A stretch of 64,000 nucleotides of DNA from an uncultured Bacteroidales bacterium (GTDB lineage Bacteria; Bacteroidota; Bacteroidia; Bacteroidales; GCA-2711565). The stretch covers positions 81,024 through 145,023 of the forward strand of contig CALOCL010000041.1 in assembly GCA_942491855.1 (NCBI GenBank), given 5' to 3'. Shown here one piece after another: positions 4,598 to 26,238 of the stretch. Each line of letters begins with the position of its first letter. The stretch's first letter is position 1. The position numbers and the translations under genes were made by a program. The notes beneath the pieces were generated by a model. It saw only the letters and a list, made by a program, of their open reading frames with translations, ran no database searches and was not told the origin of the DNA.

Positions 4598-5428
4598 ATG
4601 AAAGTGATTAAAAATACCAAAAGCAGGTTTCGAGATATCAGCATCTTTTTAATCATTCTGCTTACCACGACTTACTTATTGCCGCAAACTTCCGAAAATG
4701 ATACTTGGATTGTTCTGCCGACAAAACTTAATCCGTATAAATCGAGTGACTTGATTAGCAAGGTGAGTGACATTAAGCTTAAGTACCCTCAGGAAGTGCA
4801 AGGTAAATTACTCGGAGATGAACAGTTTGGTACTGTAAAAATTCTAGTAAACAAAAAGAAGTATTATCTGCCAGTTCGTTTATTACTAAAAAAAACCTTA
4901 AATCTATTCGATCAAAAAAACATCCCGATAGGGCAAGAAATTGTGGATATTAAAATCCCATTGCCACCCAATTACAAACCCAATGATTTGGTGAAAATTG
5001 ATCAGAAATGGAATTATCATGCAGCCGATTATTCCAAATTTTTAAGAATAGATGCTTCAATTGCCCTCGAAAAAATGTTTAGAGAAGCAAAAAAACAAGG
5101 CTTATCCTTAAAAGTTGTTTCTGCATTTCGTGCATTTAAGAAACAGCGTCAACTTTATTTAAGAGCCATTAAAAAAAATGGAATTAATCAAAATGTGGTG
5201 GCAAAGCCTGGCCATAGTGAGCACCAATTGGGGACTACTGTTGATGTCAGTTCTTTTTCTTCCAAATCTGTCTTAAATCAAAGTTTTGCTGATACCAAGG
5301 AAGGAAAATGGATGCAGGAAAATGCGAGTAAATACGGATTTTATCAATCCTACACCATCGCAAATTCTGAAGTTACGGGATACATTCCCGAACCCTGGCA
5401 TTTTCGATTTATTGGCTCCTCAAAATAG
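4598..5428 (+). CDS. M15B (VanY-like) D-alanyl-D-alanine carboxypeptidase with N-terminal signal/anchor
   Basis: SAFR, PGHSEHQLG and EPWHFRF zinc-peptidase motifs; hydrophobic N-terminus; promoter TAAGTTTG at 4583-4590. Confidence 0.9.
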   Translation: MKVIKNTKSRFRDISIFLIILLTTTYLLPQTSENDTWIVLPTKLNPYKSSDLISKVSDIKLKYPQEVQGKLLGDEQFGTVKILVNKKKYYLPVRLLLKKTLNLFDQKNIPIGQEIVDIKIPLPPNYKPNDLVKIDQKWNYHAADYSKFLRIDASIALEKMFREAKKQGLSLKVVSAFRAFKKQRQLYLRAIKKNGINQNVVAKPGHSEHQLGTTVDVSSFSSKSVLNQSFADTKEGKWMQENASKYGFYQSYTIANSEVTGYIPEPWHFRFIGSSK

Positions 5429-5490: not shown

Positions 5491-5498
5491 TAATTTTG
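5491..5498 (+). promoter_or_regulatory. Bacteroidota sigma70 -7 element of the met operon leader
   Basis: TAATTTTG fits TAnnTTTG and lies about 40 nt upstream of the SAM riboswitch. Confidence 0.65.
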
Positions 5499-5537
5499 CC
5501 AACACTATTTACAACTCCTATCCGAAAAATAGGTGTT

Positions 5538-5645
5538 TAGTTATAGAGAAGAGGGGAGAGATTAGGCTCTACGAACCTCTAGCAACCTTCTAAAAATTGG
5601 AAAAGGTGCTAAAACCTAACCTGCAATATTGCAGGAAATGATAAA
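5538..5645 (+). ncRNA. SAM-I riboswitch
   Basis: TTATAGAGA...GAGG-GGAGAG-ATTAGG-CTCT..CCTC-TAGCAACC...GGTGCTAAAACCTAA (pseudoknot ATTAGG/CCTAA), P4 CCTGCAATATTGCAGG, and closing GATAA. It lies upstream of metY/metA. Confidence 0.9.
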
Positions 5646-5656
5646 AAAACACGATA

Positions 5657-5752
5657 ATGACAACATTTAATTTATTACATTTTACGTTTTTAAGTAATCA
5701 TTTTACCATGCCCGAAATGCCTATGTGCATGGCCTGGTTCAAGTCTGTTTAG
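5657..5752 (+). CDS. putative Met-rich leader peptide (31 aa, MTTFNLLHFTFLSNHFTMPEMPMCMAWFKSV)
   Basis: Translated by hand. Four internal Met codons plus a Cys lie within 8 codons (MPEMPMCM); A at -3; located between the SAM-I aptamer and the aspartokinase gene. Confidence 0.65.
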   Translation: MTTFNLLHFTFLSNHFTMPEMPMCMAWFKSV

Positions 5753-5834
5753 CATTGGCTTGAGATTACTTCCAACAGGCATTGCATCTGCAAATGCCCA
5801 AAAACCCATACTTAATTATTATAAATCAGATAAA

Positions 5835-9429
<3,595 letters not shown>

Positions 9430-9489
9430 ATGGTGGTATCGGGCATTAAATTAAATAACCTATTTTAAAAATTTCTAAAATTAACACAA

Positions 9490-10482
9490 ATGAAAGTAGC
9501 AGTTGTCGGAGCCACAGGGCTTGTCGGAAGAAAAATTCTTGAACTAATGGAAGAAAGATCAATTGAAATGACCGAATTAATTCCGGTTGCTTCTGAAAGA
9601 TCAGTGGGTAAAAAAATCAGTTTTAAAGGAACAGATTGGACGATTAAATCATTAGCAGATGCTGTGAATTTAAAACCTGATGTTGCACTATTTTCGGCCG
9701 GTGGAGAAACCTCCTTAAAATGGGCTGAAGCTTTTGCGGAGAAAGGAACCTTTGTGATTGATAATTCTTCTGCTTGGCGCATGCATCCTGACAAAAAATT
9801 GGTGGTGCCGGAAATAAATGCTAACCAAATCACAGCCAAAGATAAAATTATTGCAAACCCTAACTGTTCTACCATACAAATGGTTTTAGCCTTGGCGCCC
9901 CTGCATAAAAAGTACAAAGTTAAAAGAGTGGTTGTTTCTACCTATCAGAGCATAACCGGATCAGGTATTGCTGCAGTTAATCAGTTGGAAGATGAAAGAA
10001 ATGGAATTGACGGTCCAAAAAAATATCCTCATGTAATTGATAAAAACTGCATCCCTCAATGCGATGACTTTAGTGATGGGGATTACACCAAAGAAGAATT
10101 AAAATTGGTTAACGAAACCAAGAAAATTTTAGGTGATGACAGCATTCAGGTAACAGCAACTGCTGTTCGTGTACCTTTGGTAGGCGGACATTCTGAATCG
10201 CTAAATGTTGAATTTTATAAAGAATATGAATTGGCTGATATCAGGCCTTTGCTTGAGGGTGAAGATGGAATTACGGTAATGGATGATATTAAAAACAGTG
10301 TGTATCCAATGCCTTTAAACGCCCATGAAAAGGATGATGTTTTTGTGGGACGAATCAGAAGAGATTTTTCTCAGCCTAAATCCTTAAACCTTTGGGTAGT
10401 GTCAGATAACCTGAGAAAGGGAGCAGCAACCAATGCAGTTCAAATCATGGAATACTTAATCAAAAATGATTTTATTCGTTAA
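9490..10482 (+). CDS. asd: aspartate-semialdehyde dehydrogenase
   Basis: VGATGLVG, DNSSAWRM, IANPNCST, VRVP..GGHSES, DNLRKGAATNAVQI. Confidence 0.97.
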   Translation: MKVAVVGATGLVGRKILELMEERSIEMTELIPVASERSVGKKISFKGTDWTIKSLADAVNLKPDVALFSAGGETSLKWAEAFAEKGTFVIDNSSAWRMHPDKKLVVPEINANQITAKDKIIANPNCSTIQMVLALAPLHKKYKVKRVVVSTYQSITGSGIAAVNQLEDERNGIDGPKKYPHVIDKNCIPQCDDFSDGDYTKEELKLVNETKKILGDDSIQVTATAVRVPLVGGHSESLNVEFYKEYELADIRPLLEGEDGITVMDDIKNSVYPMPLNAHEKDDVFVGRIRRDFSQPKSLNLWVVSDNLRKGAATNAVQIMEYLIKNDFIR

Positions 10483-11251: not shown

Positions 11252-12169
11252 ATGAATAATATTTCGGACTTAAGAGGATCTATTGTAGCCATAGTGACAC
11301 CGTTTAATGAAATGGGCGATATTGACTATCTGGCTTTAGATGGATTAATAGCATTTCATTTGGAAAACAACACCAATGGAATCGTTGTTTGTGGTACAAC
11401 CGGCGAAGCAAGTACCATGGATGATGCAGAATACGCAGAAATTGTAGAATTTGTAGTTAGGCGTGTTAATCATCAAATTCCGGTCATTGCCGGATCAGGT
11501 GGAAATTCTACCATTCAAACTTTGAAAAAATCACAAATTGCCATCAGTTGTGGTGTTGATGCTTTGTTGGTAGTAACTCCGTATTACAACAAACCAAATA
11601 CTCGTGGCATGTATGCGCATTACAAATACATTGCTGAGAATGTAGATGTCCCAATTATTCTTTACAACGTGCCTTCACGCACGGGAAGCAATTTGTCTCC
11701 TAAGCTAACGCTGCAGCTTGCTCATGATTTTGAAAATATTGTGGCCATTAAAGAAGCTACAGGTGATCTCAATCAGATGATGGAAATTATTAGCAATCGT
11801 CCGGCAGGATTTAAGGTTTATTCAGGAGAAGACACCTTAGCCTTGCCCATGCTGTCGATAGGAGCTGATGGCTGTATTTCTGTTGCTGCAAACATTATCC
11901 CAAAGGCGTTTAGTCGAATTATGGAACTTGGTTTGAACCAAGATTTTCATGCAGCACGTGAAATTCAATACAAGTATTTAAAATTGATGAATTTGAATTT
12001 TATTGAGTCGAATCCAATTCCGGTAAAAACAGCTTTGTTTTTAATGGGAATGATTCAAAATCAATTCAGATTGCCACTGGCACCAATTTCTACAGAAGAA
12101 AACCTAAGTGCATTAAGAAACGAATTACAACGGCTTGAATTGATCAATTCAAAAGTTTTAAGTTCATAA
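11252..12169 (+). CDS. dapA: 4-hydroxy-tetrahydrodipicolinate synthase
   Basis: GTTGE, PYYNKP, YNVPSRTG, AIKEATG, FIESNPIPVK; promoter TAATTTTG at 11221. Confidence 0.96.
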   Translation: MNNISDLRGSIVAIVTPFNEMGDIDYLALDGLIAFHLENNTNGIVVCGTTGEASTMDDAEYAEIVEFVVRRVNHQIPVIAGSGGNSTIQTLKKSQIAISCGVDALLVVTPYYNKPNTRGMYAHYKYIAENVDVPIILYNVPSRTGSNLSPKLTLQLAHDFENIVAIKEATGDLNQMMEIISNRPAGFKVYSGEDTLALPMLSIGADGCISVAANIIPKAFSRIMELGLNQDFHAAREIQYKYLKLMNLNFIESNPIPVKTALFLMGMIQNQFRLPLAPISTEENLSALRNELQRLELINSKVLSS

Positions 12170-12191
12170 TTAAGTGGAGGAGAGAGTTTAA

Positions 12192-13523
12192 ATGAGAGTT
12201 TGTAAGTTTGGAGGAACCTCCATTGGTTCAGCAGAAAGAATGAGGCAAGTGGCCCATATCGTTCGTGAAAACAAGTCAGCATTTATCGTTTTATCAGCCA
12301 TGTCGGGTACAACAAATACCCTGGTTGAAATAAATAGTTTGTTAAAGAAAAAAAACATAGATGGAGCCTCTGGCTCGCTTCACGAACTAAAACTTAGTTA
12401 CTTAACCGAATCAGGAAAGCTATTCAGCGACTTTGGAGATCCTTCTTTTATGGACGATACCATCAACAATTTCTTTGAGAATATTTTGCAGCTATTCGAT
12501 CGCCCTTACGATGTTGAATTAGAAAAAGAAATACTTGTTAAGGGTGAATTTATTACCACGCAAATTTTTACAACTTATTTAAAACTACTGGGGCTGAAGG
12601 CAAAAAATATTTCTGCCTTGCGGTTTATGCGTACCGATAGAGATTCAGAGCCTGATCACTACTATATTTCTGAAAAATTGTCTGAAATTTTGAAAATAAA
12701 TTCTGACATTAATTATTTTATCATCCAGGGTTATGTTTGTAAAAATGTGGAAGGAAAAACAGATAATTTAGGCAGGGGTGGAAGTGATTATTCAGCTACA
12801 ATAATTGGTGCAGCTATTAATGCCGAAGATGTTCAAATTTGGACTGATATTGATGGCATGCACAACAACGATCCGCGTTATGTTGAAAACACACAATCAA
12901 TCGAAAAGCTATCCTACAATGAAGCTGAAGAATTGGCATTTTTTGGAGCAAAAATTTTACATCCTACCTGCATTATTCCGGCAAGAAATAAAAATATCCC
13001 TATTTTTATAAAAAGTACCATGGCACCGGAAGCAAATGGAACCTTGATTAACAGTGAGGTCTTAAAGGAAGGAGTGAAGGCTGTTGCGGCTAAAGATGGG
13101 ATCATTGCCATTAAAATCAAGTCGACACGGATGATGTTAGCCTATGGCTTTTTAAGAAAAGTGTTTGAAGTTTTAGAGGACTACAAAACACCAATTGACA
13201 TGGTAACGACTTCTGAAGTTGCCATTTCGATGACCATTGATAACGCGGAGTATTTGAACGAAATTGTTAATAAATTAAATAAGCTGGGTGAAGTAACTGT
13301 CACAGAAAATCAATCCATCATTTGTGTTGTGGGTAATTTTCACGCACGTACACGAGGAATGGTTGGATTGGTGGGAGCCAGCTTAAAAAACATCCCAATC
13401 CGTATGATTTCATTCGGTGCCAGTAGCAGTAATATCACCCTTTTGATCGGCACGGAAAATAAACCCAAGGCATTAAATTTTTTAAGTGAATCATTATTTT
13501 TAAACAAAGCAGCTTATGTTTAA
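12192..13523 (+). CDS. lysC: aspartokinase (lysine-branch)
   Basis: KFGGTS, SAMSGTT, LGRGGSDYSA, WTDIDG, ELAFFGAKILHP, two ACT domains; lies within the dapA-lysA operon. Confidence 0.93.
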   Translation: MRVCKFGGTSIGSAERMRQVAHIVRENKSAFIVLSAMSGTTNTLVEINSLLKKKNIDGASGSLHELKLSYLTESGKLFSDFGDPSFMDDTINNFFENILQLFDRPYDVELEKEILVKGEFITTQIFTTYLKLLGLKAKNISALRFMRTDRDSEPDHYYISEKLSEILKINSDINYFIIQGYVCKNVEGKTDNLGRGGSDYSATIIGAAINAEDVQIWTDIDGMHNNDPRYVENTQSIEKLSYNEAEELAFFGAKILHPTCIIPARNKNIPIFIKSTMAPEANGTLINSEVLKEGVKAVAAKDGIIAIKIKSTRMMLAYGFLRKVFEVLEDYKTPIDMVTTSEVAISMTIDNAEYLNEIVNKLNKLGEVTVTENQSIICVVGNFHARTRGMVGLVGASLKNIPIRMISFGASSSNITLLIGTENKPKALNFLSESLFLNKAAYV

Positions 13524-14742
13524 CTCATCATTAATAAATACATTTCAACATATCCCAACACCCTTTTATTATTACGATTTAAGCTTGTTGGAGAAAACCA
13601 TTTTAGAGCTCAAAAATCTAATTGATGAGGATGTGTTTCAAATACACTACGCTTTTAAAGCCAATGTAAATGAGCCTATTTTAAATTTGATAAAAAAGCA
13701 TGGTTTTGGTGCCGATTGTGTGAGTGGAAATGAAGTTCTACACGCATTACAGCTTGGGTTTGATCCCAAAAAAATTGTGTTTGCAGGAGTTGGTAAATCT
13801 GATGAAGAAATTGAAATCGCGCTGGAAAACGATATCGGATTTTTTAATTGTGAATCCTTGCAGGAAGTTAGGGTAATCAATGAAATTTCCATGGCAAAAA
13901 ATAAAACTGCAAAAATTGCGATTCGTATTAATCCAAACGTTGAAGCAAAAACCCATCGTTACATTACCACTGGCATGCAGACCAATAAATTTGGCTTTAG
14001 TCAGGAAGAGTTGGAAGAGTTTTTGGGCATTTTAGATGAATTTCCTGCTATTGAAATCAAAGGTTTGCATTTTCATATCGGGTCACAGGTCTTAGATTTA
14101 GATGTGTTTAAAAACCTATGCCTAAGGGTAAATGAAATTCAGGATTGGTTTGAAGCTAGAAATTTTTCTTTAGAACACATCAATCTAGGTGGCGGCCTGG
14201 GAATCGATTATGAAAATCCTGATGAAAATCCGATTCCAAATTTTGAAAAACTAATAGAAATCATTAATCAGAATTTGATCAGACGCCCCATGCAAAAGAT
14301 TCACCTCGAGCCAGGTAGATCAATTGTTGGACAATGCGGTACACTGGTAAGTAAAGTATTGTACGTAAAAAATGGTGGAAGTAAAAGATTTGCAGTGATT
14401 GATGCCGGTTTTACCGAATTAATCAGAACAGCATTGTATCAGGCATTTCATAATATTCAAAATATCAGCTCAAACCTAACTCCAAAAGCCTATGACATTG
14501 TTGGACCCGTTTGTGAAACCACCGATAGTTTTGGCAGTGAAGTAGAACTTCCCGAAACCAAACGTGGTGATTTACTTGCTATTCGCTCTACAGGTGCTTA
14601 TGGAGAAGTAATGTCATCTTACTACAATCTACGAAAGAAAGTTAAATCATATTATTCTTCGGATTTTGAAGAACAAAATGTGATTGACTATTTTCAAACA
14701 CAACCCGAAGTTATTTCCATGGAAATTAACATGAATCTTTAA
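13516..14742 (+). CDS. lysA: diaminopimelate decarboxylase
   Basis: HYAFKAN (PLP Lys), HFHIGSQ, GGGLGIDY, EPGRSIV, VGPVCET, GAYGEVMSS.YN. Confidence 0.95.
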   Translation: MFNSSLINTFQHIPTPFYYYDLSLLEKTILELKNLIDEDVFQIHYAFKANVNEPILNLIKKHGFGADCVSGNEVLHALQLGFDPKKIVFAGVGKSDEEIEIALENDIGFFNCESLQEVRVINEISMAKNKTAKIAIRINPNVEAKTHRYITTGMQTNKFGFSQEELEEFLGILDEFPAIEIKGLHFHIGSQVLDLDVFKNLCLRVNEIQDWFEARNFSLEHINLGGGLGIDYENPDENPIPNFEKLIEIINQNLIRRPMQKIHLEPGRSIVGQCGTLVSKVLYVKNGGSKRFAVIDAGFTELIRTALYQAFHNIQNISSNLTPKAYDIVGPVCETTDSFGSEVELPETKRGDLLAIRSTGAYGEVMSSYYNLRKKVKSYYSSDFEEQNVIDYFQTQPEVISMEINMNL

Positions 14743-15492: not shown

Positions 15493-15522
15493 GGAAACCG
15501 TTGAATTTAATCAACGGTTTCC
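15493..15522. terminator. bidirectional terminator-like hairpin between convergent dapB and cupin genes
   Basis: Perfect 12-bp stem GGAAACCGTTGA / TCAACGGTTTCC with a 6-nt loop. Confidence 0.7.
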
Positions 15523-26127: not shown

Positions 26128-26238
26128 ATGGTAAAGTCAAAAACATATCAGATATTCAACCAACAGCCGATGCTGGTGGCTGGTACGATATTGCCTTTTA
26201 CCACCACCTTAAGACATAGACGCCCGTTCCGGGCATAA
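26128..26238 (+). CDS. putative Arg-rich leader peptide (36 aa, MVKSKTYQIFNQQPMLVAGTILPFTTTLRHRRPFRA)
   Basis: Translated by hand. All four Arg codons (AGA, AGA, CGC, CGG) lie in the last 8 codons. A hairpin GCCCG-TTC-CGGGC overlaps them and a second hairpin follows at about 26248-26266. Confidence 0.75.
   Translation: MVKSKTYQIFNQQPMLVAGTILPFTTTLRHRRPFRA

Follow-up and report, generated by a model that had tools for sequence, protein, structure and literature searches.

Control of methionine genes is credited to SAM riboswitches, T-boxes and protein repressors, and to our knowledge methionine is among the few amino acids without a known leader-peptide attenuator. Two inputs can converge on a met leader, as in the tandem SAM-I and AdoCbl riboswitches of Bacillus clausii metE, and charging of Met-tRNA is sensed for met genes by the Met T-boxes of Lactobacillales. 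The leader analysed here shares the two inputs but differs from both in its proposed second sensor, a translating ribosome, and it has no T-box match in Rfam. The Salmonella mgtA leader, on which Park et al. in 2010 and Hollands et al. in 2012 reportedly worked, is said to join a Mg2+-sensing RNA to an ORF with proline codons (mgtL) and to have a Rho-dependent output. Our leader resembles mgtA in that a ligand-sensing RNA is combined with a sensing ORF, an intrinsic terminator is lacking, and two adjacent hairpins come after the ORF. It differs in ligand, amino acid and phylum, the part of Rho is read here from base composition, and the aptamer helix abuts the start of the ORF, which suggests that the two sensors act in series.

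The classical attenuators (trpL, hisL, thrL, leuL, pheL and ilv, and the Bacteroid-trp motif; Weinberg et al. 2010, PMC2864571) have a leader ORF rich in codons for the end product, and these codons adjoin a hairpin that ribosome stalling would open. Our leader has both features, but the amino acid is methionine, and there is neither a hairpin followed by a U-run nor a conserved 2:3 antiterminator. Of the marks of an attenuator, the conserved short ORF and the cluster of end-product codons were found, while terminator and antiterminator were not. A 2010 survey of attenuators (PMC2965389) mentions no methionine leader peptide, and a search of the full-text literature revealed neither a Met leader peptide nor a SAM-I riboswitch combined with a leader peptide. 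In the available part of a report on Mycobacterium tuberculosis (PMC11260477), B12 riboswitches are coupled to translation of a uORF at a methionine-pathway gene. That uORF, as far as this part describes it, serves as a relay, whereas the ORF described here has sensing codons of its own and also exists without a riboswitch. Among known systems, the composite leader comes closest to this coupling and to mgtA. A widespread family of Met leader ORFs in Bacteroidia is apparently undescribed.

The window, by which we mean the whole stretch of 64,000 nt that was analysed, has uncultured Bacteroidales MAGs as its closest genomes; the met leader and its operon lie on its + strand. The original prediction had placed a SAM-I aptamer ahead of the met operon, and the Rfam covariance model RF00162 matched the core at 5538–5647 over its full length (model positions 1–108), with a score of 76.7 bits (gathering threshold 44.4). 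RF00162 was the sole Rfam family matched within the 64-kb window, and full-length matches above threshold were also obtained in at least 12 relatives. With an extended P1 of 12 bp (5533–5544 pairing with 5641–5652) the aptamer spans 5533–5652. Judging by the covariance model it is a member of the SAM-I family, with SAM binding predicted, and it is placed in the 5′ leader of Met genes (aspartokinase, metY-like, metA, asd). The usual SAM-I platform, a terminator with an antiterminator that uses the 3′ strand of P1, was not seen here. A scan of the + strand between aptamer and gene for a terminator-like hairpin with a U-run found none, in agreement with the original prediction, and the same scan found canonical terminators elsewhere in the window, e.g., at 15493–15522 and 26222–26234. 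Membership in SAM-I stands nevertheless, because the platform is outside the Rfam definition of the aptamer.

The −7 consensus of Bacteroidetes promoters is TAnnTTTG, and a probable −7 box (TAATTTTG) can be read at 5491–5498; at the matching position, relatives that lack the aptamer have the conserved box TATGTTTG. Between the probable transcription start and P1 there is also a small hairpin (CUAUUU..AAAUAG, 5505–5532), which is kept in the alignment of L001–L005 (L numbers designate related loci).

Downstream of the aptamer, an ORF of 31 codons plus UAG at 5657–5752 encodes MTTFNLLHFTFLSNHFTMPEMPMCMAWFKSV. Its presence had been predicted correctly, but not its distance of 12 nt from the aptamer: the AUG is 9 nt beyond the Rfam end, and only GAUA (4 nt) separates it from the extended P1. 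Codons 18–25 read M-P-E-M-P-M-C-M, which confirms the four Met and the single Cys described before for these eight codons. The Met-codon cluster, AUG CCC GAA AUG CCU AUG UGC AUG (M-x-x-M-x-M-x-M), occupies 5708–5731.

The ORF is conserved and open in L001–L005, L074, L075, L077, L078, L080, L081, L086 and others. Our close set consisted of the genomes L001–L005, with aspartokinases 77–87% identical to that of the window, and the metagenomic contig L074 (75%). In all six the aptamer is located about 190 nt upstream of the aspartokinase gene, and a window-type ORF is present. The sole length change in this clade is a 3-nt deletion in L004, and indels in the leader ORF come in threes both here and in the alignment of leaders without aptamer. 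The remaining two frames contain 13 stops each across six sequences. In distant leaders (aspartokinase 64–46% identical) the ORF begins 10–17 nt past the aptamer and ends in the shared Met motif, as in L075 (MKTIIKLHFILLDKCFTILELPMCML), L078 (MRSFIENNKVQSGVEFTMPMCML), L077 (...DSLPMGME), L080 (...NHFIMPEMPMRMR), L081 (...FFMPFLPMCMQ) and L086 (...SSMMPTMTMCMR). ORF, frame and Met pattern are retained from 87% down to 46% aspartokinase identity, and the N-terminal residues diverge. The contig of the tandem leader L081 also carries, at 13–166, a group II intron domain (RF02001, 97 bits) that is unrelated to the leader.

The ORF was open in every relative examined, and the frame of the motif was open over 7–28 codons in 16 lineage representatives. 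In shuffled sequences such openness arose with a probability of 0.10–0.71 per lineage, which gives a product of about 10^-10.6 over the 16 representatives; this value treats them as independent, and kinship makes the chance estimates upper bounds on significance. By this comparison the leader ORF exceeds chance. Within the close clade, nucleotide identity is higher in the ORF (80–94%) than in the aspartokinase gene (69–74%), and the variable sites are distributed 12/9/14 over the codon positions, a pattern that is not coding-like. The constraint in this clade looks like one on the RNA as much as on the coding sequence. A frameshift fusion of the ORF to aspartokinase was considered and rejected: the aspartokinase frame is open from 5760, yet the distance from stop to AUG varies modulo 3 (82, 82, 81, 84, 97, 82 and 74).

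Conserved Met-rich uORFs behind SAM riboswitches, for which the original prediction had suggested a search, are present in the window lineage and in at least eight others. About 60 leaders of aspartokinase or met operons in Bacteroidia have an ORF that ends in M-x-x-M-x-M-x-M, usually followed by x-stop. The length of the ORF ranges from 16 to 48 codons across relatives, while the Met spacing is constant (−7, −4, −2 and 0, counted from the last Met). The clusters read MPEMPMCM in the window, MPEMPMRM in L080, MHSMSMDM in L008 and MRTMSMFM in family B, which shows that the residues at x positions vary freely and the Met positions are fixed. The AUGs are all in frame with an AUG further upstream, after which AAA usually follows. 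Possible variants of the Met ORF were seen in L103 (536–604; ...EELNMMMCYTPPG-stop, 96 nt before the kinase gene) and, with SAM-I, in L170 (452–583; ...SIFSMAMPTQG-stop, 117 nt before the kinase gene).

A scan of metagenomes with an aspartokinase alignment yielded 80 loci, all of them from uncultured organisms. An ORF ending in M-x-M-x(0–1)-stop was found in 41 of the 80, located 79–155 nt (mostly 85–117) before the kinase gene, the start positions of which are approximate. An HMM built from 16 aptamers detected SAM-I in 15 of the 80. About 30 metagenomic loci, together with L008, L085 and L079, have the Met ORF without SAM-I; for L008, L079 and L085 an Rfam scan found no SAM-I aptamer. In these stand-alone leaders about 38 nt separate the end of the −7 box TATGTTTG from the AUG, and hence there is no space for an aptamer. 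Their consensus ORF has 37 codons (MKRENLNSVSVAQGEQPCFSGFL.SV..M.S.SMFMR). Since some 30 leaders have no riboswitch, the Met ORF is an independent, self-sufficient module. An aptamer is present in L086 and absent from L008 and L085, at 66–69% aspartokinase identity, and it must therefore have been gained or lost beside a resident ORF. The core of the original prediction, a SAM aptamer and a translated Met-codon ORF as two inputs, is thus supported at the level of sequence comparison: deeply diverged leaders agree in the ORF, the frame, the Met pattern and the place beside the aptamer, and the ORF also occurs alone.

Within the stand-alone ORF we observed a further hairpin, Hq (GGAGAACA-GCCA-UGUUUUUCC), in L109 and 28 others (alignment columns 57–72). 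It covaries (CAACA/UGUUG, CUCCA/UGGAG, and CCGAAGUA/UACUUCGG in L086) and may be a pause hairpin. The apparent conservation of a ‘QPC’ peptide is due to its coincidence with this covarying hairpin.

All 18 tandem leaders have a P1 of 12–13 bp, the 3′ strand of which ends 4–10 nt before the AUG of the ORF, as judged from geometry only. The two kinds of SAM-I leader also differ in terminators. Among the 18 SAM-I leaders with the Met ORF, 13 are free of terminator-like sites and five show weak matches only, whereas a terminator-like hairpin plus U-run is present in six of ten SAM-I leaders of aspartokinase that lack an M-x-M ORF. Four of these six (L006, L082, L096 and L098) have a GCCC-N4-GGGC hairpin about 40 nt past the aptamer. 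A short conserved ORF, M.Q.FYFRMPG.A-stop, begins 13–19 nt after SAM-I in these four (2795–2836 in L006, matching positions in L096, L098 and L082); it overlaps the terminator of the riboswitch, which is made up of its final codons, and its single internal Met codon lies on the 5′ arm. Like the window leader, these Marinilabiliales-type leaders precede aspartokinase and place a Met codon at the base of a hairpin. They differ in that their hairpin is a canonical terminator (AUGCCCNNNNGGGCAU plus AAUUAUUUU) with one internal Met in the ORF, while in the window type four Met codons are present and a U-run is missing. They may represent a second, terminator-embedded kind of leader with SAM-I and a Met codon.

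Minimum free energy folding and RNAalifold predicted a three-way junction in and just past the window ORF (5692–5771). It is closed by the helix Hlong (5692–5699 with 5764–5771) and contains H1, which is formed by the Met codons (5706–5737), and H2 (5739–5763; 5739–5747 with 5755–5763), which has the UAG stop in its loop. RNAalifold on seven clade members gave 32 pairs, 10 of them with compensatory changes. In the 50 leaders compared, H2 has 9–19 bp, its start is 3–10 nt downstream of the A of the last Met codon (median 7), and its stem sequences differ (UCAAG/CUUGA, AGCCUUC/GAAGGCU, GACUUC/GAAGUC and CGGAGAC/GUCUCCG). In this comparison H2, a hairpin absent from the original prediction, is the conserved partner of the Met cluster. 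In the ancestral layout, as far as the aligned leaders tell, the ORF ends in M-x-M-x-stop and H2 begins within or right behind the stop codon. In the window clade UGG has replaced this stop, which is UGA in L004 and L091, and reading continues for five codons to the UAG in the loop of H2. The Met codons have nevertheless kept their distance to H2, and therefore the conserved relation is that of the Met codons to H2 and not to the stop.

The hairpin that had been described before, here named H3 (GGCATTGCA-TC-TGCAAATGCC, 5778–5798), is present, has no U-run after it, and is kept with compensatory changes in relatives (GGCAUU/AAUGCC is replaced by GGCUUU/AAAGCC in L003). Most stand-alone leaders have a short hairpin in the position of H3; L085 has none. 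The complementarity that had been noted between its arm and the Met codons also exists, with AATGCCT (5716–5722) facing AGGCATT (5777–5783) over 7 bp. As a switch, however, the proposed pairing of AAUGCC with GGCAUU did not hold up. It beats shuffled sequences solely in the window and in L001–L003, the three relatives nearest to it, but not in L004, L005 or L074, and the wider family lacks it altogether. Nor does its sense suit a classical antiterminator: the strand with the Met codons is the one that a stalled ribosome would occupy. A stronger register of Met codons with H3 exists in the window (5724–5736 with 5774–5787; −17.4 kcal/mol versus −11.6 for H3). As a family feature it was rejected, since only the window and L001–L003 beat shuffles. 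An Rfam search of 5648–5835 and of a stand-alone leader, with E values up to 10, gave no match to a T-box or any other family.

How the state of H2 might be passed on to the operon was approached through the region before aspartokinase. Sequestration of the start site was rejected within the limits of thermodynamic modelling: the modelled unpaired probability of the aspartokinase start was unchanged (means 0.58 versus 0.58) when 14 window-type and 29 stand-alone leaders were modelled without a ribosome, with one stalled at the last Met codon, or with one at the stop. H3 persists in the modelled stalled state. No strong conserved alternative fold of the 3′ arm of H2 with H3 was found for this state (RNAalifold gave −3.6 kcal/mol only), and the one correlated change, CCGG/C versus CCUG/A, is limited to one clade. 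A further candidate, in which a purine tract of the ORF would pair over a long distance with a pyrimidine tract after H3, was discarded. It looked covariant by eye, yet duplex energies do not differ between own pairs and cross pairs, and the observed value was reached in 2427 of 5000 permutations.

The spacer from H3 to the aspartokinase start (5799–5834) is A/U-rich with more C than G. In the window the last 45 nt before aspartokinase contain 9 C and 3 G, compared to 6.0 C and 5.2 G per 45 nt in background upstream regions. All 29 stand-alone leaders have a post-H2 spacer with C>G (mean skew +0.35 versus −0.08 and −0.10 in flanking sequence), as do 13 of the 16 leaders of the initial, mostly tandem set. 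This C-rich, G-poor composition hints at a resemblance to Rho-binding sites. Factor-dependent (Rho-type) premature termination within the spacer is our best guess for the output. None of the hairpins has a U-run behind it, and in the models the start of aspartokinase is not sequestered.

From these data we consider it probable (roughly 60%) that the leader consists of a SAM-I aptamer and a translated Met-codon ORF that gauges charged Met-tRNA, arranged in series, and that it belongs to a Bacteroidia-wide family. Every step of the mechanism outlined here is derived from sequence comparison. Bacteroidetes ribosomes do without Shine-Dalgarno pairing and need an A-rich stretch in single-stranded form. 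Binding of SAM would close the long P1, which ends 4 nt before the AUG and would cover the A-rich stretch, leaving the ORF untranslated. At low SAM, P1 would open and ribosomes would enter the ORF. With plentiful Met-tRNA they would reach the stop and leave, and H2, or in the window clade the whole Hlong/H1/H2 junction, would refold. With scarce Met-tRNA they would stall on M-x-x-M-x-M-x-M, and a stalled ribosome would hold H2 open because the last Met codon is 3–10 nt away from it. Closed H2 would mean low expression of the operon, by premature and probably Rho-dependent termination, and open H2 high expression; the operon would be fully on only if both SAM and Met-tRNA are low. The sign of this logic (stalling means ON) is adopted by analogy with biosynthetic attenuators. 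Methionine starvation could also limit charging of the initiator tRNA, and this could blunt a sensor made of Met codons. More specifically, we tentatively suggest, at somewhat less than even odds, a Met leader-peptide attenuator of Bacteroidia that lacks a terminator and uses a Rho-type shut-off, which SAM-I would have captured repeatedly as a module by placing P1 on its start site, so that an AND-like gate for low SAM and low Met-tRNA results.

The high nucleotide conservation of the leader, which includes synonymous positions, and the distribution of variable sites in the close clade would also fit a leader in which SAM-I is the sole sensor. Structured RNA at 5650–5800 (Hlong, H1, H2 and H3) would then switch with P1, and the open frame and its AUGs would be untranslated by-products of a conserved RNA, CAUG being self-complementary. 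The outer stem of H2 is indeed invariant across 29 stand-alone leaders, and the 3′ strand of P1 (5636–5649) can pair with 5686–5703, which overlaps the 5′ arm of Hlong, so that a switch without ribosomes is possible. Several observations argue against it and make it unlikely in our view. The stand-alone family keeps the ORF without an aptamer, so something besides SAM must be read; the frame has stayed open over 7–28 diverged codons in each of 16 lineages; all AUGs are confined to a single frame behind an upstream AUG (usually with AAA after it); indels come in threes; and residues at x positions vary freely beside fixed Met positions.

If the ORF is translated, its product could matter in ways other than decoding of Met codons. 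In most lineages the M-x-M-x-stop geometry is strict, with the stop right next to a hairpin; there is no intrinsic terminator, and the spacer is C-rich, as in the tna and speF leaders, which are Rho-dependent. This would suit an arrest peptide like TnaC or SpeFL, with (S/P)-M-x-M-x-stop stalling the ribosome near the stop on a free metabolite (Met, SAM or homocysteine). Such peptides have conserved nascent residues and a stall tied to the stop, while here the Met positions alone are conserved across lineages, and the window clade has lost the stop (UGA to UGG), reads five codons further and still retains the element. A ligand-induced stall would moreover switch a biosynthetic operon on when its product is abundant, unless the wiring is inverted. 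We consider an arrest peptide improbable. Still harder to sustain, and in our opinion very improbable, is a small functional Met/Cys-rich peptide encoded by the first gene of a SAM-regulated operon. It would account for a conserved ORF of 16–48 codons, and one subfamily has similarity at the peptide level (MKRENLNSV..QGEQPCFSGFL); this similarity, however, coincides with the covarying hairpin Hq, the peptide is otherwise not conserved and variable in length, and called genes at the position of the ORF have no Pfam or other family match on record.

An ORF that gauges Met-tRNA by its Met codons, present by itself in about 30 leaders and joined to SAM-I in nine or more lineages, would fill a gap in the repertoire of attenuators. 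It would show a riboswitch that has adopted a ribosome-based sensor as its output stage, and would constitute a natural gate with two inputs that tells the pools of SAM and of Met-tRNA apart. The terminator-less leader would also offer a handle on attenuation in Bacteroidetes and is a candidate for a natural Rho substrate in this phylum.

The regulated operon (5835–10482), as derived from ORFs and Pfam matches, consists of four genes for aspartokinase (AA_kinase/ACT domains, 5835–7214), an O-acetylhomoserine sulfhydrylase-like Cys/Met PLP enzyme (7217–8515), homoserine O-acyltransferase (HTS, 8506–9429) and aspartate-semialdehyde dehydrogenase (9490–10482). The same gene order was found in L074, L077 and L008, and downstream genes, where visible, belong to the Met pathway (metY/metA, or HcyBio-NIL/Fer4-metH, or asd). 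A second aspartokinase is encoded in a dapA-AK-lysA operon (11252–14742), which is preceded by about 120 nt of A/T-rich sequence with a TAnnTTTG box; neither a leader ORF nor a lysine riboswitch was found upstream of it. The kinase behind the met leader is thus the methionine-branch isozyme. The conserved upstream neighbour of the leader is a gene for a VanY-type D-Ala-D-Ala carboxypeptidase (4598–5428 in the window), also present in L074, L075, L079 and L083. In L083 and L084 the kinase gene follows the VanY-type gene after 51 nt, without a leader.

The window contains on its + strand an arg leader (26128–26238) with the ORF MVKSKTYQIFNQQPMLVAGTILPFTTTLRHRRPFRA, located before genes for a GNAT protein (argA-like), argG, argD, argB, an argE-like protein and argH. 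The original prediction had assigned it the same architecture as the met leader, but the two differ: its Arg codons (AGA CAU AGA CGC .. CGG) run into a canonical terminator at 26222–26234, a GC hairpin (GCCCGUUCCGGGC) followed by a U-run (AUAAUUUAUUUUU), while the met leader has none. The layout of the arg leader is that of the terminator-overlapping ORFs of L006, L082, L096 and L098.
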